The translations under genes were made by a program, and so were the position numbers. This document shows positions 2,278 through 44,593 of a DNA stretch of 64,000 bases, in pieces. Within the stretch, counting starts at the first letter, position 1, and every line of letters begins with the position of its first letter. The stretch is from an uncultured Alphaproteobacteria bacterium (GTDB lineage Bacteria > Pseudomonadota > Alphaproteobacteria > Geminicoccales > Geminicoccaceae), in NCBI GenBank assembly GCA_963720725.1, contig CAVRGN010000006.1, forward strand, positions 432 through 64,431. The letters run 5' to 3'. The notes beneath the pieces are model-generated. The model did not search any database and was not told where the DNA came from. It was given only the letters and a program-made list of their open reading frames with translations.

Positions 2278-3159
2278 TCAATCTTTGCGCAGCGCGATTG
2301 TCCAAGCGAGGGTTATCAACCATAGAGTGATAAAACCATAGGCCCACTGCGCGCGCACCCCGCGCGGCACCCGCTCGTACCAGCGCGCCAGCACCCACCC
2401 GACCGCGAGCCCCACCGCGAACCCCGCCACGTGGGCGCCGACGTCGGTGCGCTCGCCGCCGAAGCCGAGATAGGCGAGCAGCAGGACGCCGGCCCCGAGC
2501 GGCGCCAGCCGGCGCAGGCGCAGGTCGCGTTGCAGCCAGCGGCGCTGGCGGGTGAAGGCGGAGACGATGCCCAGGGCGGCGAAGACGGCGGTCGAGGCGC
2601 CGATGGCGGTGTGGTCGGGGGCGCGCAAGAGCGCGGCGAGGAGGTTGCCGAGGGTGCCGGCCAGCAGGATGGCGAGCCAGGCGAGGCCGGGGCCGAGGAG
2701 CTGGGCGGCGAGCGTGCCGATGGCCATGCCGGCCAGGAGGTTGCCGATCAGGTGGCCGTGGTCGAGGTGGAGGGTCAGGGCGGTGACGGCACGCCACCAC
2801 TCGCCGGCGCGCATCAGGCCGGCCTGGACCGCACCGGCCTCGAGCCAGTCGATGCCCCACAGGTCGCGGCGGGCGGCACCGTAGAAGAACAGGAGGAGGA
2901 GCGCGTAGGCCAGCGCCGCGGGCCAGCCCTGGTGGATGGCGGCGGCCGGGCGCACGGCGCGGCGGCGGGGGGCGTTCTCGTGCTCGTAGGCGGCGAGCTC
3001 GTGGCGCGCGTCGGCGGCGTCCGCGGCGGCGACGAACAGGCCGACGCCCAGCGGCATGGGCACCTGGCGGCTGGCGATGCCCATGGCGGCCAGGACCAGG
3101 GCCAGCTGGTCGGCCTCGCGCCGGCCGGCGCAGCGGCGGATCTCGACATAGTCCAGCAT
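2278..3159 (-). CDS. Rhomboid intramembrane serine protease with soluble N-terminal domain
   Basis: WWR, HLIGN, catalytic GAS and AHVAGF motifs; multiple hydrophobic helices. Confidence 0.9.
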   Translation of the reverse strand: MLDYVEIRRCAGRREADQLALVLAAMGIASRQVPMPLGVGLFVAAADAADARHELAAYEHENAPRRRAVRPAAAIHQGWPAALAYALLLLFFYGAARRDLWGIDWLEAGAVQAGLMRAGEWWRAVTALTLHLDHGHLIGNLLAGMAIGTLAAQLLGPGLAWLAILLAGTLGNLLAALLRAPDHTAIGASTAVFAALGIVSAFTRQRRWLQRDLRLRRLAPLGAGVLLLAYLGFGGERTDVGAHVAGFAVGLAVGWVLARWYERVPRGVRAQWAYGFITLWLITLAWTIALRKD

Positions 3160-3184
3160 GGCCGCGGCGCCGGCCGCCGGTGGC

Positions 3185-6751
<3,567 letters not shown>

Positions 6752-6755
<4 letters not shown>

Positions 6756-7870
6756 ACCCGCATGGGCATGAGCACGTAGAGCGTGCTCGCGTCGCCCGGG
6801 TCGCGTACCACGGTCGGTGCCGCCGCGCTCGCCATCTCGAAGCGGACCGTGTCGCCGTCGATACCTTGCAGCATGTCGATGATATAGCGAGCGTTGAAGC
6901 CGATTTCGAGGGAATCGCCGCCGTAATCGGCCTCGACCTCCTCGACCGCGCGTCCGGTCTCCGCACTCACCGCGCTGATCGTCAGCGTGCCCTCGCCGAA
7001 GCTCAGCTTCACGGCCTTGGCCTTCTCGGTCGAGATCGTGGCGACGCGGTCGACGGCGTCGCCGAACTCCTTGCGCGCCAGCACCGCCAGCTTGTCGTTG
7101 CCGGAGGGGATCACCCGCTCATAGTCCGGGAAAGTGCCGTCGATCAGGCGCGAAACCAGGACCGCGCGCTCGAGCGCGAACTGGATCCGGGTCGGCGAGA
7201 CGCCGACCTGGACCTCGGCGCCGACCCCTTCGATCAGGCGGCGCACCTCGGCCACGGTCTTGCGTGGAACGATGATGGGCGGGATCTCGGCGGCACCCTC
7301 CGGCAGCGGCACCTCGACCCGGGCCAGCCGGTGGCCGTCGGTGGCGACGCCGCGCAGCATGGCGGTGGCGCCGCTCTTGGTGGCGTGGATGTGGATGCCG
7401 TTGAGATAGTAGCGCGTCTCCTCGGTGGAGATCGCGAAGCGGGTCTTGTCGATCAGCCGCGTGAGGTCGGCGGCGGAGATGGTGAAGCGGACGCCGAGCT
7501 GCTCCTCGCCGATGGCCGGGAACTCGTCGGCGGGCAGGGTGGGGAGGCTGAACACCGAGCGGGCCGCGCGCACGGTGACCTCGCCGCCGCCCTCGGCCTG
7601 CTCGATCCCGACCTCGCTGCCGTCGGGCAGCTTGCGGACGATGTCGAACAGCGTGTGGGCCGCCAGGGTGGTGGTGCCCCGGCGTTGGACCTGCGCCGGC
7701 TCGTGGGCCACCAGCGACAGGTCCATGTCGGTGGCGGTCAGGCCCAGCCGGTCGGCCTCGGCGACGAGCTTGACGTTGGACAGGATCGGGATCGTGGTCC
7801 GCCGCTCGACCACGTTCTGGACATGGGCCAGCGACCGCAACAAGGCCGCGCGCTCGATGCTTAGCTTCAT
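6752..7870 (-). CDS. dnaN: DNA polymerase III beta clamp
   Basis: MKLSIER...TTIPILSNV, ATDGHRL, LIDGTFPDYERVIP, C-terminal VLMPMRV; ATG at 7870. Confidence 0.98.
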
Positions 7871-7983
7871 GGGCGGGTTCGATCCGTGAACGAAATCCGA
7901 CGCATTCTCATCCCCGGCCAAGCGGGGACGCGCACGCTAGCAAAATTGCGCCTGAGGCGACAGTTTTCGTACGGTCCCGCGGC

Positions 7984-9381
7984 CTATGCCTGCAGCTTGC
8001 GGCGCAGGGAGCCGAGATCGTCGGCGATGGCACGGTCCTCGGCGCTCAGCTTCTCGATCTGGCGCACCGCGTGCATGACCGTGGTATGATCGCGGCCGCC
8101 GAACTTCTTGCCGATCTCCGGCAGCGAGCGCGGCGTCAGCTGCTTGGCGAGGTACATCGCCATCTGCCGCGGCCGCGCCACCGCCCGGCTGCGGCGGGCC
8201 GAGGTCATGTCCGCCATGCGGATGCCGTAATGCTCGACCACGGCCTTTTGGATCTCCTCGATCGTCACCCGCCGATCGTTGGCGCGCAACAGGTCGCGCA
8301 GCACGTCCTGCGCCATGTCGATGGTGATCGTCTTCTGGATCAGGCTGGCCTGGTGGACGATGCGGTTCATGGCACCCTCCAGCTCGCGCACATTGCTGGT
8401 GATGCGGCTGGCCAGGAACTCGGTCACGCGCTCGGGGATGTCGACCTTCAGCTGCTCGGCCTTGGCCTGCAGGATGCCCAGGCGCAGCTCGTAGGTGGTG
8501 GGATGGATGTCGGCGACCAGACCCCAGCCCAGGCGCGAGCGGATCCGCTCCTCCAGCCCCGACAGGTCCGAGGGGCTGCGGTCGGCCGAGATCACGATCT
8601 GCCGGCCGCGGTCCACCAGCGTGTTGAAGGTGTGGAAGAACTCTTCCTGGGTGCTGTCCTTGCCGCTGATGAACTGCACGTCGTCGACCATGAGCAGGTC
8701 GACCGAGCGGAACAGCTCCTTGAAGGTCATGGTGTCCTTCGAGCGCAAGGCGCGCACGAACTGGTACATGAACTTCTCGGCGGAGAGGTAGACCACCCGC
8801 CGGTTGGGATCGAGCTGCTTCACCCGGTGCGCGATGGCGTGCATCAGGTGGGTCTTGCCGAGACCGACGCCGCCATAGAGGAACAGCGGGTTGAACGGTG
8901 GCTTGGGCGACGACGCCACGCGCTCGGCCGCAGCGACCGCGAACTCGTTGGGCTTGCCGACGACGAAGGTGTCGAAGGTGAAACGCGGGTCCAGCCGGGC
9001 GCCGAGATCCTCGAGTGCCGCCACCTCGTTGGTGGGTATCACCTGTTCCGCGTCCAGCGGCCGAGCGCTCGTTGCCGGCGCGGACTGTCGGTCGGCAGTG
9101 GAAGTCAGTGCGGCACTCGCCGGCCGCACATTGAGGGCAATCGTGCGGATGCTGGGATTGATCGACGTCCAGAGGCCCCGGATGCGATCCGCGTAGTGCG
9201 CGACCACCCAGTCGCGCATGAACTGGGTCGGCACGGCGATCACGACCCTGTCGCCGTCGACCTGGGCCAGATCGAGGGGCTTCAGCCAAGTGGAATAGGC
9301 GGTGTCGCCAACCTCGGCCCGCAACAGACCTCGCACTTGGGTCCATTGATGCTCGATATCGGACGCTTGCGGAAGGACCAT
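7984..9381 (-). CDS. dnaA: Chromosomal replication initiator DnaA
   Basis: FTFDTFVVG, PLFLYGGVGLGKTHL, DLLMVDD, ELEGA, RQMAMYL, GRDHTTVMHA; start ATG 9381 or GTG 9387. Confidence 0.99.
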   Translation of the reverse strand: MVLPQASDIEHQWTQVRGLLRAEVGDTAYSTWLKPLDLAQVDGDRVVIAVPTQFMRDWVVAHYADRIRGLWTSINPSIRTIALNVRPASAALTSTADRQSAPATSARPLDAEQVIPTNEVAALEDLGARLDPRFTFDTFVVGKPNEFAVAAAERVASSPKPPFNPLFLYGGVGLGKTHLMHAIAHRVKQLDPNRRVVYLSAEKFMYQFVRALRSKDTMTFKELFRSVDLLMVDDVQFISGKDSTQEEFFHTFNTLVDRGRQIVISADRSPSDLSGLEERIRSRLGWGLVADIHPTTYELRLGILQAKAEQLKVDIPERVTEFLASRITSNVRELEGAMNRIVHQASLIQKTITIDMAQDVLRDLLRANDRRVTIEEIQKAVVEHYGIRMADMTSARRSRAVARPRQMAMYLAKQLTPRSLPEIGKKFGGRDHTTVMHAVRQIEKLSAEDRAIADDLGSLRRKLQA

Positions 9382-9856
9382 ACGCACCTAAGACCCTGCC
9401 TTCCAGCTGTGAGTGGCTCGTGGAGCGCTCGCATGGACGCGGCGCGAAACCCTTAATCCTACGCCGGACGGCGGAGTTCCGGGCTACCTTGCACGACCAC
9501 TTCTCCGTGTTCCCCTCGCACCGTTGTGCGCTCCTTTTTCAACTCAAAGACGACCGGCTGGCGCTATCGTCGAACTTGTCAAAGCGTGAGGTTTTACTCG
9601 CGCTTGACTTTTGCACTTCAATTGCCGGTCGATCGAGAACTGACCGGCGAGAGTGCCGGTGTGTCGTTGGAGACTAGATGGCACCCCGGAGGCTGGCAAG
9701 AGGATCGAAGGGTGAACGACGAATTTTGCGCAATGGTTGAGAACAATGCGCCGTCCCAGCCACGCTCGGCGGGACCCAGACACCAAAAGCGCCGGCCGCG
9801 ATTGCGACCGACGCGATAAACAGCAAACCGTAATTTAGGTTCCCGACCCGGACGGG

Positions 9857-33408: not shown

Positions 33409-34986
33409 TCACAGACTCCTGGCGCAGACATTGTGCCACGTCTTCAGTCCTAGGGCGGCCGGCGGCGGCGGGATGAGACAGACGATGGCGATCGCCATGA
33501 GCAGCGTGACGCCGATCGCGATCAGGACGTCGGCGTAGGCCATGGTCGTCGCCTGTGCCCGGAGCTGGCCGGCGACCGTCGCGAGCGCCGCCGCATCGCC
33601 GAGGAACGGGCGCAGCGCGCCGAGGCGATCCGGCAGGCCGCTCGAGAGGGCCGTCACCGTCTCCGTCAGCCGGGCCGAGTGGAACTGCTCGCGTTTGGTG
33701 AACAGGGTTGCGATGAGGCCAGCGCCGATGGTCGTCGACAGGGCGCGAATGGTGTTGAAGAGCGCATTGGCCGATGGCGCCTCCCGGGGGCCGATGCGCG
33801 AGGTCGCGATCACCATGATCGGAACCTGGACGAAGGGTTGGGCCATGCCTTGCACGATCTGGCTCAACAGGAACTGCGTCTCCTGGTATTGACTGGTCAC
33901 GCCGGCATTCATCAGCACGCCGGTTGCGAACAGCAGCAGGCCGAAGATCATGATCGGCCGCTCGTCGATCTGCCGGGCCAACGCCAGCACGAGTGGCGCC
34001 AGCAGCAGCTGCGGCAGCCCTACCCACAGAAGCGCGGTGCCGACCTCGAGCGGCCGATGGTTGTGGATGGTGACCAGAAAGGCCGGGATGATCATCGCGG
34101 CGGCGAGGAGGCCGACACGGAAGAGCGAGTTGCAGAGCACGGCCAGACCGAAATCGGGCCAGCGAAGGAGCCCAAGGTCGACGAGCGGAGCCTCGGTGCG
34201 CAGCTCGTGCCAGACGAAGAGGGTGACGAAGACGAGGGCCAGGGCCGACAGGTTCGCGATCAGCGGGCTGGCGAACCAGTCGAGCCGGTTGCCCTGGTCG
34301 AAGACGCATGCGGTACAGGCAAGGCCGAGCGCGATGAGGATCGCACCCTTCCAGTCGATCCGGCGCAATCTGGCGAGGTCGAGCGGGTCGCGCGGCAGGC
34401 CAACCCAGGCGCAGATCATGCAGATCAATCCCGGCACCAGGTTCTGGTGGAAGATCCCCCTCCAGCCAACCGCATCGGTGATCCAGCCATCGGTGGTGGC
34501 GGCGATCGTCGGCGTGAAGGTCAAGGTGACCGCGAAGAGTGCGATCCCCAGTGGCTTGTGCGGACCGGTGAAGGTCCGGAGCGTGATCTGGAATGCCAGC
34601 GGAATCATCGCACCGCCGGTCAATCCTTGCAGGAAACGGAGAGCCAGGAGCTGCTCGAGCGTGGTGGCAGCAGCGCAGGCAACGCAGATCGCAAGGAACA
34701 GCAGGACGTTCACGCACAGCCAGAGCCGGGTCGAGAAGACCGCCGCCAGGGCCGCGGTGACGGGTATGATGGCGAACTCACCGATCGAGTAGGCCGTGGG
34801 GATCCATGCGCCTTCGTCGAAGGCGGCACCGATGCCGCCCCGAATGTCGGCGATGGCGAATGCGGTGGTCTGCGTGTTCAAGAGCGCCATCACCGATCCG
34901 GTCAGACCGGCCGCCATGGCGAACCAGGCACGCGGCGTCAGTGACTCCGCGCCCGTGTCCGACGGGCGCTGGAGCTCTGCCGTCAT
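33409..34986 (-). CDS. DHA2/EmrB-type MFS efflux transporter
   Basis: WIPTAYSIGE, RFLQGLTGG, VFDQGNRLDWF, about 14 TM helices. Confidence 0.92.
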   Translation of the reverse strand: MTAELQRPSDTGAESLTPRAWFAMAAGLTGSVMALLNTQTTAFAIADIRGGIGAAFDEGAWIPTAYSIGEFAIIPVTAALAAVFSTRLWLCVNVLLFLAICVACAAATTLEQLLALRFLQGLTGGAMIPLAFQITLRTFTGPHKPLGIALFAVTLTFTPTIAATTDGWITDAVGWRGIFHQNLVPGLICMICAWVGLPRDPLDLARLRRIDWKGAILIALGLACTACVFDQGNRLDWFASPLIANLSALALVFVTLFVWHELRTEAPLVDLGLLRWPDFGLAVLCNSLFRVGLLAAAMIIPAFLVTIHNHRPLEVGTALLWVGLPQLLLAPLVLALARQIDERPIMIFGLLLFATGVLMNAGVTSQYQETQFLLSQIVQGMAQPFVQVPIMVIATSRIGPREAPSANALFNTIRALSTTIGAGLIATLFTKREQFHSARLTETVTALSSGLPDRLGALRPFLGDAAALATVAGQLRAQATTMAYADVLIAIGVTLLMAIAIVCLIPPPPAALGLKTWHNVCARSL

Positions 34987-36107
34987 CGCTGCCGGGGATC
35001 GGCGTGCGCCTGCCGATCGCCAAGCCCCAGCAGGGCGAGCAGGCGCTCGATCAGCGGCAGCGGCTCCGCGTCCGGAGCGGTGTCGACCGCGACCACGGCC
35101 GACATGCCGGGAAGAAGTCGCCCCACGAGCTCCTGCTTCGGCTCGATCACGACCTTGAGCGGAATCCGCTGCACGATCTTGGTGAAGTTGCCGGTCGCGT
35201 TGTCGGGTGGAAGCAGGGCCGTTGCGGCGCCGCTGGCGGATGCCAGGGCCGCCACGTGGCCGCGCACCTTCGCTCCAGGAAAGCTGTCGACCGTGATCGT
35301 GACCGGCTGGCCGGGGCGTACCCGGCCCAGCTGCGTCTCCTTGAAATTCGCATTGATCCAGACGGAATCGAGTGGGACCAGAGTGATGATCCCGGCTCCG
35401 ACTCCCACATACTGGCCTTCGAACACCGCCCGTTTGCCGAGCTGGCCGCGCACTGGCGCCCGGATGACGGTGTGCCCGAGATCGATCCGAGCGAGCTCGG
35501 TGGCTGCCCTGGCTTGGTCCAGCTCGGCCTCCGCCTGCCGCTGCTGCGCGGCAAGCACCGGGAGATGACCCTCGGCTTCCTGGATCGAGGCCGCGCTGCT
35601 CTTGAGCGCGGCGCGGTGCGCGAGATGGGCCGCCCTGGCCTCGTCCAGGGCTTCCTGCGTGCCGAAGGTCGTCTTGCGCAGGGAGCGGGCACGCTCCAGC
35701 TGCACCGACGCGAGGTCAAGATTGGCCTGCGTTGCTTCGTGCTGCGCGCGTGCCTGGGCGATCACGTCCTGCTGCTGGCGCAGCTGCGCGCCGATATGGT
35801 CGACCGCCGCCTGCCTTGCCTGCACGACGGCTTCGGCCTGGGCCACCTTTGCATGGTAGTCGTTGTCCTCGATCCGCAAGAGGGGCTGGCCCGCGTCCAC
35901 CATCTGGAAGTCCTGCACCAGAACGGCGGCGACGTAGCCCGGCACCTTCGCCGCAAGCATCCGCAAGTCACCTTGGACGGAGGCGTCATCCGTCGTCTGG
36001 ACACGGCGATCGACGCGCCACCAGTCCCAGCCCAAGGGCACGCCGACCGTCGCCAGGAGGGCAAGGACGGCAGCAACCAGCAAAAACTCGATGACCCGCA
36101 TGCTCAT
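34983..36107 (-). CDS. HlyD/EmrA membrane fusion protein
   Basis: TTDDA, VPGYV, TVIRAP, ANFKETQL, PPDNATGNFTKIVQRIP; start 36107 preferred. Confidence 0.92.
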   Translation of the reverse strand: MSMRVIEFLLVAAVLALLATVGVPLGWDWWRVDRRVQTTDDASVQGDLRMLAAKVPGYVAAVLVQDFQMVDAGQPLLRIEDNDYHAKVAQAEAVVQARQAAVDHIGAQLRQQQDVIAQARAQHEATQANLDLASVQLERARSLRKTTFGTQEALDEARAAHLAHRAALKSSAASIQEAEGHLPVLAAQQRQAEAELDQARAATELARIDLGHTVIRAPVRGQLGKRAVFEGQYVGVGAGIITLVPLDSVWINANFKETQLGRVRPGQPVTITVDSFPGAKVRGHVAALASASGAATALLPPDNATGNFTKIVQRIPLKVVIEPKQELVGRLLPGMSAVVAVDTAPDAEPLPLIERLLALLGLGDRQAHADPRQR

Positions 36108-36246
36108 CAGCGATGCCCCCGCTCGCGGAGCGCGTCGGTTGAGCCAGATCCCGACGCCGGGTCGGTCCACCCCGCTACCAACGTGAGGCCGAACATTGAG
36201 CCTATTCGCGTCCGTCGCTCTCCACCGATGGGAAGAGCACGCTGGC

Positions 36247-36834
36247 TCATCGACCGGTCGTCGTCAGACGAATGTCGATCTCGCGATCCATGAACGACCA
36301 CTCCCTGGTCGCCCGCAGCTGATCGAGCATCTCCTCGAACGCGATTTCACTCCCGGGCGCGAAATCGAGGAATCCGATGAAGTCGAAGGGCGCTTCGTGA
36401 TCCAGATCCCTGCAGTGAAGCAGGCGTCGGGCGACGGCCGGCAGATAGCGCATGCCGATGGCGATGTGGTGCGAGTCCTCTTCGAGGATCGTGCGCCGTT
36501 CATCCTGCGTGAGCGCCCACCACTCGGCCCGCTTGCGCAGCAGGATCAGCGCCGCATGGGTCGCCTCGGGACGTCCGATCGTGGCTTGCTTGCTGGTCAG
36601 CTCGGTCTTTTCCGATCGTGTCGTGTACCGGTCGTTGGACGCGACGCCGTGGAAAGCCCAGACCGCATCGGCGGGCAGATCCGCCGCGACGCCGGAGATC
36701 ATGTCGATGGCGGTGACACGCGCGATCGGCTGTCCGGAGATCGTGGTGTGGGAAACGACCTGCATGCTCCCCGTCTTGCCCCCGATGAAAGTGGTCGCTC
36801 TCGAATTCGAGGGCATCCGCCCATCTACTGTCAT
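36247..36834 (-). CDS. Chlorite dismutase-like heme protein, short clade II type
   Basis: SNDRY, GRPEAT, RK..EWW.L.QDERR, proximal His in SHHI, distal Arg in VARRLLHCRDL, EW..DREIDIRL. Confidence 0.85.
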   Translation of the reverse strand: MTVDGRMPSNSRATTFIGGKTGSMQVVSHTTISGQPIARVTAIDMISGVAADLPADAVWAFHGVASNDRYTTRSEKTELTSKQATIGRPEATHAALILLRKRAEWWALTQDERRTILEEDSHHIAIGMRYLPAVARRLLHCRDLDHEAPFDFIGFLDFAPGSEIAFEEMLDQLRATREWSFMDREIDIRLTTTGR

Positions 36835-36891
36835 GCTCGAGCCCTCCGATTGCTTGCGGCATATCTTCCGGCGATGCCCGACCTGCACCTG

Positions 36892-37947
36892 TCAACTGCC
36901 CGCGGCGCCGGCCGGGATGTCGTCCAGCCGCTTGAGTCGATAGACGCTGACCGACACGGCCCACGCGACGATGAACACGCCGATGATGGCGAAGCCGAGC
37001 GCGTTGAAGTTGTCGTTGAGCGCGCCAACGAGCCGCCAGAGATCACCTTCGAGCCCGTACCGATCGCCGACCAGGCCCAGCACCTCTATGCTGCCGATCA
37101 GCACGGCGACCAGCACCGAAACCAAGGTGATCGTCAGGTTGTAGTAGAGCTTGCGGATCGGTGCCCTGAACGCCCAGTCGTAGGCGCCCAGCATCACGAG
37201 GCCGTCGGTCGTGTCGACGAGAGACATCCCGGCAGCGAAAAGAGCGGGGAACACCATAATGGACCAGAGGGACTCGCCTTGCGCGACATGTGTCGCGGAA
37301 ATGCCAAGCAATGCCACCTCAGTCGCGGTTTCGAAGCCGATGCCGAAGAGGAAGCCGAGCGGGAACATATGCCAGCTCTTCGTCACCAGCCGAAACAGCG
37401 GCCGGAAAATCCGGGCGAGGAAGCCGCGGTTGTCGAGCAGGATGTCGAAATCCTCGTCCGCATAGACACCCCCCCGACGAACATGGCGGAACGCACGCCA
37501 GACCCCGCGCAGGATGATGATGTTTGCTGCCGCGACGGTGAACAGGAAGAATGCCGAGACCAGCGTGCCGACAAGCCCACCCACCGACTTGAGCGTGTCG
37601 GCGGGACCGAGCACTGCCGTAGCTGTGCCCGCAACCGCAACGGCAAGGACGACCACGGTCGAGTGTCCGAGCGCGAAGAAGAAACCGACCCCGACTGGCC
37701 GCTCTCCGGTCTGCATCAGCTTGCGAATGACGTTGTCGATCGCGGCGATGTGGTCGGCATCCACCGCATGGCGCAGCCCAAAGCCGTAAGCCAGCAGAGC
37801 CGTCCCAAGCAGCACCGGCTGGTCGTGAAACAGCAGTAGAGCACAGGTCCAAGCAGCGAGATTGGCGACAATCAACAGGGCATAGATGCCGATGACGCGT
37901 GGATGTAGCTCCGAAGGCTCGGAGAAGATGCGGCTGATCCGGGTCAT
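36892..37947 (-). CDS. HoxN/HupN/NixA (NiCoT) Ni/Co transporter
   Basis: Signature GLRHAVDADHIAAID, FFALGHSTVV, GIGFETATE. Confidence 0.95.
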   Translation of the reverse strand: MTRISRIFSEPSELHPRVIGIYALLIVANLAAWTCALLLFHDQPVLLGTALLAYGFGLRHAVDADHIAAIDNVIRKLMQTGERPVGVGFFFALGHSTVVVLAVAVAGTATAVLGPADTLKSVGGLVGTLVSAFFLFTVAAANIIILRGVWRAFRHVRRGGVYADEDFDILLDNRGFLARIFRPLFRLVTKSWHMFPLGFLFGIGFETATEVALLGISATHVAQGESLWSIMVFPALFAAGMSLVDTTDGLVMLGAYDWAFRAPIRKLYYNLTITLVSVLVAVLIGSIEVLGLVGDRYGLEGDLWRLVGALNDNFNALGFAIIGVFIVAWAVSVSVYRLKRLDDIPAGAAGS

Positions 37948-37983: not shown

Positions 37984-38733
37984 TCAGACTTGCGCCGATC
38001 CGCCGTCGACGAACAGTTCGCTTCCACTCATGAAGCTGCTGTCGTCCGAGGCGAGGAAGAGGGCGGCGCGCGCGATCTCATCGGGCTCGCCCATCCGTCC
38101 GAGCGGAATGGACGCGACCGCGGCTTCGATCATGGCCTCGTGCACGTCCTCGCTTGGTGCGAGGCCATGCCAGCCGGGCGTGGAGGTGGCGCCCGGTACC
38201 AGCACATTGACCCGTATCTTCCGCGGTGCGAGATCCAGCGTCCAGGTGCGGGCGAAGTTGCGCACCGCTGCCTTGCTGGCGCTGTAGACGCTGAAGGCAG
38301 GCGTTCCGGTCGTGCCCGTGGTGGACCCGGTCAGGATGATGGAGCCACCCTCCTTCATCAGCGGCAGCGCCTTTTGCACGGTGAACAGCGTACCCTTGAC
38401 GTTGGTCGCGAAGATCGTGTCGAACTGCTCCTCCGTGATCGAACCGAGCGGCGCGAACGTCCCGCCGCCTGCGTTGGCGAAGAGCACGTCAACGGTTCCA
38501 GCCGCATCCCGGACGGTTGCGAACAGACGGTCGAGGTCCGCAAGGTTCGAAACGTCGCTTCGCACGCCGTGCGCACCTCGACCGATCGCCTGTACGGCGG
38601 CGTCGAGTTCCCGCTGGCGTCGTGCCGTCATGAAGACGGTGGCACCCTCCTCGACAAACAGCCGCGCCGAAGCCAAGCCGATGCCGCTGTTGGCACCGGT
38701 GATGACGGCGACCTTGCCTTGAAGTCTTCCCAT
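37984..38733 (-). CDS. SDR oxidoreductase
   Basis: ITGANSGIG, FANAG, YSASK, PLGRMGEPDEIA. Confidence 0.93.
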   Translation of the reverse strand: MGRLQGKVAVITGANSGIGLASARLFVEEGATVFMTARRQRELDAAVQAIGRGAHGVRSDVSNLADLDRLFATVRDAAGTVDVLFANAGGGTFAPLGSITEEQFDTIFATNVKGTLFTVQKALPLMKEGGSIILTGSTTGTTGTPAFSVYSASKAAVRNFARTWTLDLAPRKIRVNVLVPGATSTPGWHGLAPSEDVHEAMIEAAVASIPLGRMGEPDEIARAALFLASDDSSFMSGSELFVDGGSAQV

Positions 38734-38802
38734 GCGACCTGCACTCCCTTGGCTCACGCAAACGTCTCGGCGGGCGTCGAGCACGACAGCCGGAAATGTC
38801 CG

Positions 38803-39234
38803 TCAGGTTGAACTCTCGGCCGTTCCGGCGGCCTCGTGCGCGATCTCGGCCAAGGCCTCTTGCATGCCTTGGACGGCGGGGATCCTGTCGGTCGGGAGAC
38901 CGTGCCGGCACCCGATCCAGGCGGGTTCGTTGAAGCCGAGCCACGCCACTCCGTCTCCGTCCTGCCAGACGAGGACCTTGAGCGGGAGGTCGATGCCGGC
39001 AGTCTGCGCCGCCTGCATCAGCGGCGTACCGCCGCGTGCGCTTCCGAAGACCAGAAGTTCGGTCGGGCGAAGCGACAGCCCCGCCTCTGCCGCTCCGGCC
39101 CCATGGTCAATTCGGGCGAAGATGGTCATTCCCCGGCCCGTGACGCTGGCAACCAGGCGATCCATGGTCTCCAGCGGTCCGTGGCTGCTCCTGAGGCACG
39201 TCAGTCCGGCCGGGGGGTCCATCGGTTCGCTCAC
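38803..39234 (-). CDS. DUF302 domain protein
   Basis: IFARIDH, LLVFGS..GTPLMQ, DLPLKVLVW. Confidence 0.88.
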   Translation of the reverse strand: MSEPMDPPAGLTCLRSSHGPLETMDRLVASVTGRGMTIFARIDHGAGAAEAGLSLRPTELLVFGSARGGTPLMQAAQTAGIDLPLKVLVWQDGDGVAWLGFNEPAWIGCRHGLPTDRIPAVQGMQEALAEIAHEAAGTAESST

Positions 39235-39587
39235 GTCGCGACAAGCTCAGCCGGAGGCAGCTCGGCAGACCAGCGCGCCTCGATCTCGTTCATCTTCTCG
39301 GCAAGGCCGGTCGGCGTCAGGACACCCTTCTGGAACAATAGGACGGCGAAGGCGGTGGCCCACCGTTCATAGTAGCCCAACCGATCGATCGTCGCTGCCC
39401 CGAGCGCCTCGACGCCACGGCGCTTCTCCTCGGTGCTGATGAGCTTGTGATAGTCCAAGACATCGGCCAGGGCGTGGCAGCGCCTCTCCCAGGCGGCGAG
39501 TTCGCGTTCTACTCGCGCGAAGGCAGGCGAGGGCTGACCGCCCACGTCGTTGGGCAGCCGGCGCATGAAGTCTTCCAAGCCCGTCAT
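39231..39587 (-). CDS. Thiocyanate hydrolase beta-like subunit (N-terminal half of NHase beta)
   Basis: RLPNDVGG, WE, TEEKRRGVE, YYERW. Confidence 0.8.
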   Translation of the reverse strand: MTGLEDFMRRLPNDVGGQPSPAFARVERELAAWERRCHALADVLDYHKLISTEEKRRGVEALGAATIDRLGYYERWATAFAVLLFQKGVLTPTGLAEKMNEIEARWSAELPPAELVAT

Positions 39588-40225
39588 GCCGCGGCCCTCT
39601 GTTCATCGACCTTGACAGGGACGACGCCGATCATCGCGTCGCGCGTGACCAGGGTCGCTAGCTGCTCCTCGGTGTAGCCGTCGGTGCCCTCGGGTCGGAC
39701 CGGCAGCACGAGAAAGCGCAATGCGGAAGTCGAGTTGGCGACCCGGATCTCCACCTCCTGCGGGATGATGGTGCCGAACTCGGCCAGCAGCGCGCGCGGC
39801 TCAGCTACGGCGCGGGCGCGGTAGGGTTTCAACTTGTACCACTCGGGTGGCAAACCAAGGAGCGGGCGGGGATAGCAGGAGCACAGTGTGCAGACGACCA
39901 GGTTGTGAACCTGCTCGGTGTTCTCGAGAACGATGAGGCCCGTGTCGTCGTAGAAGGTGACGCCGAGCTCCTCGCAAGTCCCCCGGCCGTCGGCGAGCAG
40001 GCGAGCGCGGAAAGCGGGGTCCGTCCAGGCGCGGGCGACGACCTTGGCGCCCAGGGCGGGTGTGCGGGAGTCCAGAACGTCGATCTGGCGCTCGATCTCG
40101 CCGGTCTGCAGGATCTTGCGCTCGATCAGCATCTCCTCGAGCGCCGCTTGCAGGATGTCGAAATAACCGGGCCGCTCCGGCGCCCCGATCTCCTCATGGG
40201 CATGGTCCCGATCGTGGTCATGCAT
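39584..40225 (-). CDS. Thiocyanate hydrolase gamma / nitrile hydratase alpha-like cobalt subunit
   Basis: Metal motif VCTLCSCYPRPLLG, GAKVVARAWTDP, WYK...YRARAV.EPR. Confidence 0.93.
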   Translation of the reverse strand: MHDHDRDHAHEEIGAPERPGYFDILQAALEEMLIERKILQTGEIERQIDVLDSRTPALGAKVVARAWTDPAFRARLLADGRGTCEELGVTFYDDTGLIVLENTEQVHNLVVCTLCSCYPRPLLGLPPEWYKLKPYRARAVAEPRALLAEFGTIIPQEVEIRVANSTSALRFLVLPVRPEGTDGYTEEQLATLVTRDAMIGVVPVKVDEQRAAA

Positions 40226-40571
40226 TGCGGGCGGCCTCCAGCCAGGTTTCGAAGACTTCGATGTACAGGCGGTCGCGGTGACTCCCGGCGTAGTCGGTCC
40301 AGATGTCGGACATGGGGACGGCGATCCGGTAGTAATGTCGCTTCACGCCGGCGTTCAGGCCGAAGCCCTCCTCCTCATTGTCGACGGCCGGTTGGACGAG
40401 CCTCTCAACTATGCCCGTCCGGCCGCGAAGATATAGAGGCACGCGGTAATGCCCGAGCGGGAACCGCTCCACGACCCGGACCCGCTCGCCCGGTCGGAAG
40501 ACTGGTGTCTCGCCAAGTGCCGGCACCACTTTGGCAAGTCGTGGATCATCGACCGGTGGCTGTGATTCCAT
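40218..40571 (-). CDS. Thiocyanate hydrolase alpha-like subunit (SH3-like C-terminal half of NHase beta)
   Basis: FRPGERVRV, HYRVPLYLRGRTG, YYRI, DIW, VFETWLE. Confidence 0.85.
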   Translation of the reverse strand: MESQPPVDDPRLAKVVPALGETPVFRPGERVRVVERFPLGHYRVPLYLRGRTGIVERLVQPAVDNEEEGFGLNAGVKRHYYRIAVPMSDIWTDYAGSHRDRLYIEVFETWLEAARNA

Positions 40572-40655: not shown

Positions 40656-41480
40656 TCAGCTCTCGATGAAGGCAAGAAGATCGGCATTGATGGTGTCGGC
40701 CTGAGTAGTCGGCATGCCGTGCGGGAAGCCCTCATAAGTCTTGAGCGTTCCCTTCTTCAGCAGCTTGGCCGATAGTGGCCCGGAATCGGCGTATGGGACG
40801 ATCTGATCGTCCTTGCTGTGCATCACCAGCACGGGCACGTCGATCTCCTCGAGATCGGCCGTGAAGTCCGTCTGCGAGTAGGCGACGATGCCGTCATAGT
40901 GGGCCTTGGCGCCGCCCATCATTCCCTGGCGCCACCAGTTCTGGATGATCGCCTCCGAGGGTTTCGCACCAGGCCGGTCGTAGTTGTAGAACGGACCAGC
41001 GGCGATAGCGCGATAGAATTCCGATCGGTTCGCGGCGAGCTGCGCCTGGAGGCCGTCGAACACGTCCTTCGGCACCCCCCCTGGATTGGCGGCGGTCTTC
41101 ACCATCAGCGGCGGCACCGCACTGATGATGGCGGCCTTGGTCGCCCGGCCCTTGCCATGCCGTGCGAGGTAGTGGACCACTTCGCCGCCGCCGGTCGAAT
41201 GGCCGATGTGAATTGCGTTGGTCAAATCGAGATGCGCCGTCAGTGCGGCGAGATCGTCGGCGTAGTGATCCATGTCATGACCGTCATCGACCTGCGTCGA
41301 ACGGCCATGCCCGCGCCGATCGTGGGCGATGACGCGATAACCCTTGCCGAGAAAGAACAACATCTGGGTGTCCCAATCATCGGCCGACAGGGGCCAGCCG
41401 TGACTGAAAACAATGGGTCGGCCCTTGCCCCAATCCTTGTAGTAGATTTCGATGCCGTCGCGAGTGGTTACTGTGTTCAT
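40656..41480 (-). CDS. Non-heme chloroperoxidase/arylesterase-family alpha/beta hydrolase
   Basis: [35 protein letters not shown]. Confidence 0.92.
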   Translation of the reverse strand: MNTVTTRDGIEIYYKDWGKGRPIVFSHGWPLSADDWDTQMLFFLGKGYRVIAHDRRGHGRSTQVDDGHDMDHYADDLAALTAHLDLTNAIHIGHSTGGGEVVHYLARHGKGRATKAAIISAVPPLMVKTAANPGGVPKDVFDGLQAQLAANRSEFYRAIAAGPFYNYDRPGAKPSEAIIQNWWRQGMMGGAKAHYDGIVAYSQTDFTADLEEIDVPVLVMHSKDDQIVPYADSGPLSAKLLKKGTLKTYEGFPHGMPTTQADTINADLLAFIES

Positions 41481-41526: not shown

Positions 41527-42531
41527 TCACTTGAGGCCCTGTGCAAAGGCGAGAAGGTCGCCGTTGAACTCGTCCTTGTGGGTGACGGTCAGCCCATGCG
41601 GCGCGCCCGGATAAACCTTCAGCGTTGCGTTCTTGATCAGCTTCGCCGAGATCCTCGCGGTGGTCGCGATCGGGACGTTCTGGTCGTCCTCGCCGTGAAT
41701 GATCAGCGTCGGGACATCGAATCTCCGTAGATCCGGTGTGAAGTCGGTTTCGGAAAAGGCCTTGATCCCTTCGTAGGATGCTCGCAGCCCGACCTGCATG
41801 CACCAAAGCCAGAAGGCGTCCCTGATGCCTTGCGACACGTTCGAGCCCGGGCGATTGGCGCCGAAGAACGGCCCGTCGCCGAGATCACGGTAGAATTGTG
41901 CGCGGTCGCCGGCGACGCCGGCACGGATGCCGTCGAACACCTCGATCGGCACGCCATCGGGATTTGCCGGTGTCTTGAGCAGCAGCGGCGGGATGGCAGA
42001 GACAAGGACCGCACCGGAAAGTCTGTCCGTCCCGTACCTGCCGATGTAGCGGGCGACGTCTCCGGCCCCGGCTGAATGACCCACCAAAGTTGCGGTCTCG
42101 AGGTCCAGCGCGCGGATCAGTTCTGAGAGGTCCTCGGCGAAGGTGTCATAATCGTTCCCTTGCCAGGGCTGGCTCGACCGGCCATGCCCGCGACGATCGA
42201 AAGCAACGCAGCGGAAGCCGTGCGATGCCATGAACATCATCTGATCGTCCCAGATGTCGGCGTTCAAAGGCCAGCCATGGCTGAAGACCACCGGCACTCC
42301 TTCGCCCCAGTCCTTGTAGTATATGTCGGTGCCGTCCTTCGTCCTGATGAAGCTCGACCTCTGTCCTGCAGCACTCGGCCGTTCGCCCGACCCGCCCGTC
42401 TCTTGCGCGTGCGCGGCGATGGTGATGTTCGGGACTGGCGCCAAACTCGACGCCGCCGCAAGGCCGCCGAGCAGCACATTGCGGCGAGCCGCGGCTCCGT
42501 GGGTGAGCGGAAATCGGTCCGGACGTGTCAT
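41527..42531 (-). CDS. Tat-signal-bearing non-heme chloroperoxidase-family alpha/beta hydrolase
   Basis: [14 protein letters not shown] signal; [28 protein letters not shown]; ATG at 42531. Confidence 0.88.
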
Positions 42532-42575
42532 GCTGGTCCCTCGATCGAAGCCGCCATGGCGATGGCGCGGATTAT

Positions 42576-43550
42576 TCACTGCGGAGCGGTTGAGCGGTCG
42601 AGAAAGTCACGGATCATCGGCGCCATGACGTCGAGCTTGTCTTCGAGAGCGAAGTGCCCGGTGTCCAGCAGATGCAGTTCAGCCTTGGGAAGGTCGCGAA
42701 GATAGGGGCTCGCCCCGGCAGCCGGAAAAATCTGATCGTTCTTGCCCCATACAATCAACGTAGGCGGTTGGTATTTGCGAAAGAAGGACTGAAATTCGGG
42801 ATACAGCGGCACATTGGTGCCATAGTCATGGAATAGGTCGAGCTGAATGTCTCTGTTGCCGGGCCTGTCAAGAAGCGCTTGGTCGTGAACCCAATTGTCC
42901 GGACTGATGCGCGACACGTCGCTGACGCCGTCGACGTATTGGAATCTCGTGATCGCGGGGGTCACGAGAAAGTCCAGCGCCCGTCGATGCGCTTCTGATC
43001 CGTTCGCCCAATACGCCTTGATCGGATCCCAGAACGCTCCGAGACCTTCCGCGTAGGCGTTGCCATTCTGCACCACGAGCGCAGTAACCCGCTCGGGATG
43101 CAGCAGTGCCAAGCGGTAGCCAACGGGTGCGCCATAATCCATGACGTACATCGCGTAGCGCGTGGCCCCGAGTTGCTGCAGCAGGGCGTCCACCAAGCTG
43201 GCGTAATGTGCAAAGGTGTAGCTGAATTCCGAATGGTCGGGCGCGGCGCTCTGGCCGAAGCCAGGATAGTCCGGTGCAATCACGCGATAGTGGTCGGCCA
43301 GCGTCGGGATGAGGTTTCGGAACATGTGCGACGAGGTCGGAAACCCGTGCAGTAGAACCACGACCGGGCCGTCCGGTGGGCCGGCCTCCCGGTAGAACAA
43401 GCTGATCCCGTCGACGGTCGCGGTTCGGTAGTGCGTAGCGTTCCCTGCGGCCTGCAGCGCCGTCTGCGCGTCCGCGGCCGAGAACCCCGCCTCGGCGACG
43501 CAGGTCAGGAGCGTGATGGCCGCCGCGACGGCCAGCCTGTTCCGCTTCAC
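42576..43550 (-). CDS. Secreted Asp-nucleophile alpha/beta hydrolase (epoxide hydrolase/dehalogenase-like)
   Basis: GTG 43550 with AAAGGGGA upstream and a signal-like [14 protein letters not shown]; [29 protein letters not shown]. Confidence 0.88.
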
Positions 43551-44270
43551 TGCCGGGTCCCCTTTCGTAGCGGTCAGGTGCGAACCCAGCGCGACACGCA
43601 GTGCGCTCACCATCGACGCGTCGACTGCCATGTTGAAACCCTGCGCTGCCGTGATCTCGTGGTGCGACAGGACAGTGCCCGAGATCGGCGGAACGCGGGT
43701 GTTAGGTGTTGCTAAAAGCTGCTCAGCGGCCTGTGCCGAGGATGCTTTGGAGCGCGCACCATGCTTGGCGGCGGATGGGTCACCGGTTCCGCTGGCCGGA
43801 GCATGCCCCGCTCGCTCCGGGCTGGCCATCGCAGCGGCGGAAGTGGCTCCGCGCCGGCGCGGGACGAGGTGTTTTCTCCCGGCGGGCAACCGCGTCTTCG
43901 CCGGTGCCGCCGCGATGCTGGGGGCAACGAAGCAGTAACCCCTGCCGGGGACGTTGGTGATGTATCGGGGCCGATCCGGCCGGCACCCCAGGGCCTTTCT
44001 CAAGGACGCCAGATGCACCCGCGGAGTGCCTGGACTGACCCGGACATCGGCCCATACGTGAGCGATGAGTTCCTCGTGCTTCACGACCTGACCTGCGCGT
44101 TGCACGAGAACAGTGAGGATGTCGAAGGCCCGGCTGCCGAGCGGGACAGGAAGACCGTCCCGCCGCAACGATCGCTCGGCGAGGTCCAGTTGGAACGGGC
44201 CGAACACGAACGATTGCACGCCCGCGAAACCGGCCAGCGCGGCGTCTGGCCAATGGTTGGCTTGCCCCAC
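43551..44270 (-). CDS. OmpR-type winged-helix DNA-binding domain reading in frame into the hydrolase
   Basis: GTG 44270 with GGAGGTG upstream; [41 protein letters not shown]; no stop before 42576. Confidence 0.75.
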
Positions 44271-44593
44271 GGTCCACCTCCGTCCCGCTGGCCGACGGCC
44301 TTGATCGGCCTCGATCCACGCGGTGAATGCAGTCACTGTCAACTACGAGATACAGTCGGTCAAGGGAATTGATGGCAGTGCCAGTTGGAGCGGATATGAG
44401 CATCCTCCGCTGCTACGTCGGAGCCGTGCCGCGCGGGCAAGGTGCGAGACCAGCGTAGGCACTGGAATGACGTTGCTCGGTCTGATAGATGCTCCTGTGC
44501 CTGGGCGGTGCAGGCAGGCTTTGCACCGCAGCGACTGGCGTGTTATGCATGGATGTGCCGGATACAATGCGCGGCGGGTGACTGGAATCAGAC

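Follow-up and report, generated by a model that had tools for sequence, protein, structure and literature searches.

Thiocyanate hydrolase (SCNase) has so far been regarded as a specialised and isolated side branch of the nitrile hydratase (NHase) family of metalloenzymes. Two of its arginines, betaR90 and gammaR136, are said to control substrate selectivity, a result reportedly due to Yamanaka et al. (J Biosci Bioeng, 2013), and the pocket of canonical cobalt-type NHases (Co-NHases) reportedly comprises betaLeu48, betaPhe51 and betaTrp72, as described by Miyanaga in 2001. Here we describe a locus at positions 39231 to 40571 of a 64,000-nucleotide stretch of DNA (the window), taken from contig CAVRGN010000006.1 of assembly GCA_963720725.1, an uncultured alphaproteobacterium of the Geminicoccaceae. 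The locus encodes an NHase family member of three subunits: alpha, which carries the metal site, and betaN and betaC, the two halves of the NHase beta chain. An initial annotation, made by a model from the letters of the window, had proposed a three-subunit cobalt enzyme with SCNase-type pocket residues. We find that the locus and its close homologues (the window clade) appear to constitute a previously uncharacterised sister subfamily of SCNase, and on balance we favour a small anionic or strongly polar nitrile as the substrate.

Subunits and metal site

The beta chain is encoded by two genes that flank the alpha gene, in the order betaC-alpha-betaN (Table 1). Open reading frames and Pfam matches, all above their cut-offs, thus agree with the split beta chain and the non-canonical order described in the initial annotation: alpha matches PF02979 with 256 bits (2e-76), betaN matches NHase_beta_N only (PF21006, 49 bits, 8e-13), and betaC matches NHase_beta_C only (PF02211, 60 bits, 4e-16). 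With the required domains and the CxLCSC metal claw present, the locus belongs to the nitrile hydratase superfamily (NHase/SCNase). Neighbouring genes overlap by 8 nt (betaC/alpha), by the 4 nt of an ATGA (alpha/betaN) and by the 4 nt of a GTGA (betaN and the next gene, which encodes a DUF302 protein): the three subunit genes are translationally coupled, and the DUF302 gene is coupled to betaN. A scan for promoters and terminators gave nothing above chance.

The metal motif of alpha, VVCTLCSCYPRP, contains C112, C115, S116, C117 and R120, with CTLCSC at residues 112-117. Its Thr and Tyr (V-C-T-L-C-S-C-Y, versus C-S-L-C-S-C-T in the Fe type) mark the enzyme as a Co-type NHase family member, the identity of the metal being predicted from this motif and from the nickel/cobalt permease (NiCoT) gene in the cluster. 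Both motifs quoted in the initial annotation, CTLCSCYPR in alpha and RLPNDVGG...TEEKRR...YYERW in betaN, are present in the translations, and the Co-type alpha motif and the split beta matches bear out its three-subunit, cobalt-type assignment.

Family models do not describe a canonical two-subunit nitrile hydratase: alpha scores 245.2 against TIGR01323 (NHase alpha), just under the cut-off of 249.85, the two beta halves reach 51 and 36 with TIGR03888 (fused beta, cut-off 152), and the activator of such enzymes is missing. The constitution is that of the split-beta, activator-less, three-subunit enzymes of the ScNHase / ToyJKL type.

The SCNase gamma genes that we fetched read CTLCSCYPRP, with the Arg at position 135 of a 242-aa orthologue, consistent with R136 of the 243-aa Thiobacillus thioparus protein. 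R120 of the window alpha aligns with this Arg, as had been predicted. We nevertheless rejected the arginine as a marker of SCNase: CSCYPR is the rule across a very large split-beta branch, and is found in 72 of the 88 alpha genes typed among the matches listed, nearly all ordinary split-beta operons included. The fused-beta canonical enzymes carry CSCYPW.

Relation to the thiocyanate hydrolase lineage

For comparison, three scn operons were recovered with an SCNase beta fragment, from Thiobacillus sp., Thioalkalivibrio thiocyanodenitrificans and Thiohalophilus sp. (L088-L090). Each reads scnB-scnA-scnC-P15K, with cynS, a LysR regulator and an NMT1-type ATP-binding cassette (ABC) transporter in the flanks.

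In an unrooted maximum-likelihood tree of concatenated alpha, betaN and betaC (80 taxa among the matches listed, 414 columns), the window clade, SCNase and an actinobacterial clade of Nocardia type are separated from the rest with an ultrafast bootstrap (UFBoot) of 100 and a Shimodaira-Hasegawa-like approximate likelihood ratio (SH-aLRT) value of 99. The window clade itself receives 100 and 99, and the union of SCNase with the Nocardia type, to the exclusion of the window clade, 100 and 100. The same grouping is weak in a quick tree of alpha only (81) and reaches 95 with betaN only. A position within ordinary NHases would, by the initial annotation, have spoken against its reading; the tree places the clade beside SCNase instead. 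By this topology the window clade would be the nearest neighbour of the SCNase lineage in the unrooted family tree, not nested within SCNase, and we propose it as a new sister subfamily to thiocyanate hydrolase.

The Nocardia-type clade (L029, L036 and L060, from Nocardia and a metagenome-assembled genome, MAG, of Actinomycetota) is sister to SCNase and carries SEERRR, YYARW, CSCYPRP and a P15K homologue. This suggests an SCNase-type enzyme of actinobacteria that has so far gone uncharacterised.

Residues shared with thiocyanate hydrolase

The best PDB matches of both beta halves are SCNase subunits: SCNase beta (2dd4_B, 3e-7) for betaN and SCNase alpha (2dd4_A, 1e-9) for betaC. The betaN subunit reads RLPNDVGG...STEEKRRG...YYERW (T52-E-E-K55-R56-R57, Y72-Y-E-R-W76), and the phmmer alignment to 2dd4_B sets K55, R56 and R57 opposite residues 90, 91 and 92 of SCNase beta (R-R-R). 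The equivalent of betaR90 is therefore Lys, as the initial annotation had suggested.

Columns were compared across the window clade, SCNase, the Nocardia type and 65 other enzymes (Table 2). Among the enzymes sampled, a basic residue at the betaR90 column is found only in the first three groups; the acidic residue at alpha 168 is lost only there, and the motif [ST/A]EE[KR]RR is confined to them. The same restriction holds for betaC E68 and Y80, the latter being matched by Phe in SCNase and in the Nocardia type. A TEEKRR-type Lys is present in 71 of the 150 library representatives found with betaN, and one member of the clade (P0250) bears a natural Lys-to-Arg variant, TEERRRG. Three of the shared departures at otherwise conserved columns change charge; two of these (K55 in betaN and the absence of the acid at alpha 168) favour the binding of an anion. 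The claim of SCNase-type pocket residues thus holds in part: both selectivity positions are basic (R120 and K55), but the arginine of CSCYPR is not specific to SCNase.

Table 2. Residues at four alignment columns in the window clade and in three comparison groups
Column	Window clade	SCNase	Nocardia type	Other enzymes
betaR90	K 9/9	R	R	ILMV 53/65; Phe or Ala in canonical enzymes
alpha 168 (A168)	A/M/I/L/N	K	K	Asp/Glu 64/65
betaC 68	E	E	E	hydrophobic 56/65
betaC 80	Y	F	F	ILMV 64/65

Distribution and gene order of the clade

The set of clade loci comprises the two copies in the window genome and loci from assemblies, named genomes and metagenomes; the scan of the genome collection gave at least 600 pattern matches, and named genomes are too thinly represented in the sample of the clade. 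All 120 closest alpha homologues (72-100% identity) keep CTLCSCYPRP. They come mostly from soil, peat and bog metagenomes, some being labelled Rhodopila or Beijerinckiaceae, and further carriers are Rhodanobacter (with the cultured Rhodanobacter sp. 7MK24, L009), Accumulibacter and a Chitinophagaceae MAG. Wherever a clade locus covers the three genes completely (25 of the 35 scanned; the other 10 stop earlier, at contig or fetch ends), the order is betaC-alpha-betaN. Among the matches listed, the commonest architecture of typed alpha genes (n=88) is betaN-betaC-alpha, usually with CSCYPR, and the order of the window recurs outside the clade in one unrelated Dongiaceae locus (L012).

Of about 26 clade loci whose flanks are long enough, 20 contain a DUF302 gene, which in 13 lies directly after betaN; none was seen in the non-clade NHase loci sampled. 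DUF302 is a clade-specific partner, and the sole tightly linked extra gene. The closest structure, PDB 7tj1 (annotated CrcB, ~55% identical), gives no function. Compared with three relatives, the ratio of non-synonymous to synonymous substitution rates (dN/dS) is 0.13-0.20 for betaC, 0.07-0.12 for alpha, 0.11-0.19 for betaN and 0.29-0.39 for DUF302, which indicates purifying selection on each of the four core genes.

The window genome has three alpha genes, on the contig of the window, on contig 11 and on contig 3. The second is part of a paralogous betaC-alpha-betaN-DUF302 locus outside the window (C11:147607-152548), upstream of which lie genes for a SoxH-related metallo-beta-lactamase fold protein (MBL) with a twin-arginine translocation (Tat) signal, a cytochrome P460, a DUF1348 protein and an HGFP-type alpha/beta hydrolase. 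The third is in an ordinary betaN-betaC-alpha NHase locus with CSCYPRL and DELRR (C3:569132-570605). In two alphaproteobacterial MAGs (L014:7200-8654 and L018:7272-8564), betaN and alpha apparently form one open reading frame with a His-rich linker; betaC was not detected nearby, and their closest relative is the Dongiaceae locus with its independent betaC-alpha-betaN order.

Proposed reaction and substrate

The reading we hold somewhat more probable than otherwise is that of a functional non-corrin cobalt enzyme of the NHase family, a heteromer of alpha, betaN and betaC. Its substrate is most likely a nitrile that is small and either anionic or strongly polar, because among the groups sampled the K55 and A168 changes occur elsewhere only in the SCNase lineage. 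By analogy with NHase/SCNase chemistry, Co(III) would be held by C112, C115, S116 and C117 of alpha, with C115 oxidised to sulfinate and C117 to sulfenate, both hydrogen-bonded by R56 of betaN and an arginine of betaC; the C-N triple bond of the substrate would bind at or next to the metal and then be hydrated. The pocket is predicted to be more positive than in nitrile-hydrating relatives, with R120 for Trp, K55 for a hydrophobic residue and an acid lost (A168). Thiocyanate is the leading single candidate, a plausible one although well short of probable; its hydration would give thiocarbamate, and then COS and NH3.

Several observations weigh against this preference. Lysine is shorter than arginine and binds anions differently, and the position of alpha A168 and betaC E68/Y80 in the pocket is putative. 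The alpha subunit scores 208.6 bits against TIGR03887 (SCNase gamma equivalog), below the cut-off of 291.45, and by its PDB matches is closer overall to Co-NHase alpha than to SCNase gamma (Pseudonocardia thermophila Co-NHase alpha ~1e-62, its CSCYPR variant 3vyh 1e-63, SCNase gamma 1e-51); it also lacks an 11-residue insertion of SCNase gamma. The YYERW of betaN is the generic split-beta form, that of SCNase being YYGRW. No P15K, cynS or NMT1-type ABC importer gene is found in any clade locus, no cyanase gene in the window genome, and the neighbouring hydrolases, MBL and short-chain dehydrogenase/reductase (SDR) are also compatible with an organic nitrile pathway. Finally, all clade members are known from sequence alone, the tree is limited to its 80 taxa, and the SCNase branch is long (1.1 substitutions per site), so that some long-branch attraction is possible. 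Of the SCN- or other anion hydrolysis advanced in the initial annotation, the placement beside SCNase, K55 and the lost acid speak in favour; the failed gamma cut-off, the missing insertion and the lack of a P15K, cyanase or NMT1 context do not.

A true thiocyanate hydrolase isoenzyme, turning SCN- into COS and NH3 as a nitrogen (and sulfur) source for heterotrophic soil bacteria, seems to us rather unlikely, even though the concatenated tree makes the clade the nearest neighbour of SCNase and its CTLCSCYPRP is identical to that of SCNase gamma. It has TEEKRR for the AEERRR of SCNase, TEERRR being a natural variant in the clade, and the lost acidic alpha residue and betaC E68 are common to both; moreover, DUF302 genes sit within sox clusters of some sulfur oxidisers (PMC5248467), and the MBL adjoining the paralogous locus is SoxH-related. 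Such an isoenzyme is hard to reconcile with the gamma score and the absent insertion, with Ala/Met where SCNase has Lys, with YYERW for YYGRW, or with clade loci that never hold P15K, cynS or an anion ABC importer, and no thiocyanate degrader is known to depend on a clade enzyme. A possible, though doubtful, alternative is an ordinary NHase for a neutral or zwitterionic organic nitrile (a plant or microbial nitrile, or an N-cyano compound as for the Streptomyces canus enzyme), the amide being processed by the neighbouring hydrolases and the basic residues being idiosyncrasies of the clade. CSCYPR is normal in split-beta NHases, of which the characterised examples hydrate neutral nitriles, alpha is ~57% identical to P. 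thermophila NHase alpha, and YYERW is the generic form. The recurrent alpha/beta hydrolases, MBL and SDR suggest an organic catabolic pathway, and the MBL has a weak match to the chlorothalonil dehalogenase 6uxu (E 1.7e-4). What this alternative leaves unexplained are three charge-changing substitutions at otherwise conserved columns, common to the SCNase lineage only, and the position of the clade beside SCNase in the tree; an amidase gene, too, is found in no clade locus examined.

More speculatively, and with little probability in our estimate, the clade might be a new anion-specific hydratase, perhaps no thiocyanate hydrolase, acting on pseudohalides or their oxidised forms, for example cyanate, selenocyanate or oxidation products of SCN-/CN-. 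DUF302 would then be an obligatory partner (maturation factor or anion carrier) replacing P14K/P15K, and the enzyme would work with the chlorite dismutase and perhydrolase-type hydrolases as a module for the detoxification of reactive (pseudo)halogens in peatland bacteria.

Maturation and the role of betaN

The initial annotation saw no separate P14K/P15K-type activator, and none emerges from the whole 4.74 Mb genome: a betaN profile, which detects P15K in SCNase loci and P14K-like genes elsewhere, finds three betaN genes only. In a tree of betaN sequences, the activators of SCNase and of the Nocardia type derive from their own beta lineage and no longer carry YY.RW (FPERQ, FPIRTRS). The window betaN keeps R56 and YYERW, branches outside this activator duplication and groups with SCNase-lineage beta subunits; we therefore rejected it as a P15K orthologue. 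Since both motifs are kept and the duplication excludes it, betaN is to be taken, from its sequence, as a catalytic subunit, in line with the subunit role originally assigned to this gene.

Could its product be an activator or chaperone after all, with a mature enzyme of alpha and betaC only? Its gene follows alpha, as do those of NhlE, P14K and P15K, activators are betaN homologues, and the betaN subunit of the S. canus enzyme has chaperone activity. We nevertheless consider this highly improbable: R56 corresponds to the Arg that hydrogen-bonds the oxidised cysteines, YYERW is the very motif lost by P15K-type activators, K55 and the motifs are near-invariant across the clade, and the dN/dS of betaN is similar to that of the other subunits.

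In the activator-less three-subunit NHase of S. canus, the betaN subunit AnhD acts as a swapping chaperone (PMC7329996). By analogy, the enzyme of the window would mature in the absence of a P14K/P15K-type activator, with betaN probably doubling as swapping chaperone. The NiCoT permease probably supplies cobalt, and the clade-specific, translationally coupled DUF302 protein may be a required accessory.

Genomic neighbourhood and origin

The DUF302 and NiCoT genes reported near the locus are both identified by domain and family scores, and belong to a longer series of genes on the same strand (Table 1). An SDR gene follows DUF302, in the window as in L093 and L096; its true start is probably ~17 codons downstream of the annotated GTG. 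NicO recurs in clade loci L001, L009, L010, L100, L101 and L103. The chlorite dismutase homologue, which recurs in L001, L004 and L096, is close to the enzymes of Cyanothece and Nitrobacter winogradskyi (9e-51 to PDB 5k8z, 2e-49 to 3qpi), although its match to the Pfam model is weak (29 bits). With ~50-55% identity to characterised clade-2 chlorite dismutases and an occurrence in 4 clade loci only, it was rejected as an aldoxime-dehydratase-like producer of nitriles. Directly downstream of it lies an EmrA/EmrB-type efflux pump pair of the major facilitator superfamily (window 33409-36170, reverse strand).

Table 1. Genes of the hydratase locus and its surroundings, in window coordinates
Feature	Position	Strand	Description
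betaC subunit (SH3-like C-terminal half of NHase beta)	40218..40571	-	117 aa; counterpart of SCNase alpha
Co-type alpha (metal) subunit	39584..40225	-	213 aa; CTLCSCYPRP with R120; His-rich N-terminus
betaN subunit (N-terminal half of NHase beta)	39231..39587	-	118 aa; counterpart of SCNase beta
DUF302 protein	38803..39234	-	143 aa; PF03625 1e-18; GTGA-coupled to betaN
SDR-family oxidoreductase	37984..38784	-	adh_short_C2 5e-61
NiCoT (HoxN/NixA family) nickel/cobalt permease	36892..37947	-	TIGR00802 420 bits, cut-off 333
Clade-2 (short, dimeric type) chlorite dismutase homologue	36247..36888	-	phmmer 1.6e-57 to PDB 9gtj
Alpha/beta hydrolase (perhydrolase / 'non-haem haloperoxidase' / esterase-like by sequence pattern)	40656..41480	-	Abhydrolase_1 6e-25
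Second alpha/beta hydrolase, N-terminal Tat-like signal (ARRNVLLGG)	41527..42579	-	translation and family matches
Winged-helix (Trans_reg_C/CadC-like) and HGFP-type alpha/beta hydrolase fusion	42576..44342	-	588 aa; candidate regulator

On the other side, the first alpha/beta hydrolase reaches no NCBIfam equivalog; its homologues recur upstream of betaC in L004, L091, L093, L095, L096 and L098, and the second hydrolase also recurs in clade loci. The fusion protein is unusual in joining a DNA-binding winged helix to a full HGFP-type (dehalogenase/epoxide-hydrolase-like) hydrolase domain: in NCBIfam, residues 43-178 match a CadC/OmpR-type domain and residues 301-582 a haloalkane-dehalogenase-like one. 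Its homologues, large Trans_reg_C regulators, flank clade loci L001, L004, L095 and L096. Altogether, the looser recurrent neighbours of the clade (perhydrolase-like and HGFP-type hydrolases, Tat-exported SoxH-related MBL, NiCoT, chlorite dismutase, cytochrome P460, DUF1348, AraC-type and winged-helix regulators) define no pathway.

A plasmid or phage origin of the contig was rejected, as dnaA, dnaN and gyrB make it chromosomal; these genes and their neighbours, a replication-origin gene set, lie at window 2278-9387. Between 36 and 56 kb of the window, the region of the hydratase cluster, the GC content falls from ~0.70 to ~0.64. The patchy occurrence of the clade (5 of 60 relatives carry its enzyme) and a GC content at third codon positions (GC3) that is lower in the cluster than in neighbouring housekeeping genes suggest horizontal acquisition.

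Implications

The window clade is the closest relative of SCNase found in this analysis, and carries intermediate states at the presumed positions of the switch from nitriles to anions: Lys for Arg90, and a neutral residue between the acid of NHases and the Lys of SCNase. Its enzyme could reveal how anion specificity arose in this metalloenzyme family, and is a possible new catalyst for the remediation of thiocyanate, cyanate or anionic nitriles. The coupling to DUF302 gives this widespread domain of unknown function a first functional setting in which it can be tested, and the activator-less clade joins the S. canus enzyme as a second natural system in which to study activator-free cobalt insertion. 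Because peat and bog metagenomes commonly contain the clade, its substrate may be relevant to the cycling of nitrogen or sulfur in such habitats.

Comparison with known systems

The canonical Co-NHases of Pseudonocardia thermophila (PDB 1IRE) and P. putida (3QXE), with alpha ~57% identical to that of the window, share with it the metal ligands, the catalytic betaArg and betaTyr and the fold families. They differ in their fused beta chain, dedicated activator gene and retained acidic alpha residue, and in a hydrophobic pocket with an alpha Trp (CSCYPW) and a beta Phe at the R90 column, where the window enzyme has R120 and K55.

AnhD-AnhE-AnhA of S. canus CGMCC 13662 (PMC7329996) and the toyocamycin NHase ToyJKL, compared here by description, likewise have a split beta chain, a Co-type alpha and no separate activator gene. 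Their known substrates are neutral nitriles, and their genes are arranged differently: betaN-betaC-alpha in the former, alpha first in ToyJKL, betaC-alpha-betaN in the window. A split-beta locus labelled Streptomyces (L039) belongs to a distant clade, with VDELRR, in which the residue at the R90 column is not basic.

ScnBAC of Thiobacillus thioparus and relatives (PDB 2DD4/2DD5) is the nearest of these systems. Like the window enzyme, it has three subunits with a split beta, CTLCSCYPRP with Arg in place of the Trp, a basic residue at betaR90 as part of [ST/A]EE[KR]RR, Glu at betaC 68 and an aromatic residue at betaC 80, and has lost the acidic alpha residue conserved in NHases. At residue 90 the clade has Lys (Arg in one representative) for the Arg of ScnBAC, with the charge kept, and at alpha 168 Ala/Met for its Lys; YYERW replaces YYGRW, and the 11-residue gamma insertion is found in ScnBAC only. 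The genes run betaN-betaC-gamma-P15K in ScnBAC and betaC-alpha-betaN-DUF302 in the window, and where ScnBAC loci hold P15K, cynS and an NMT1-type ABC importer, those of the window clade have DUF302 instead.

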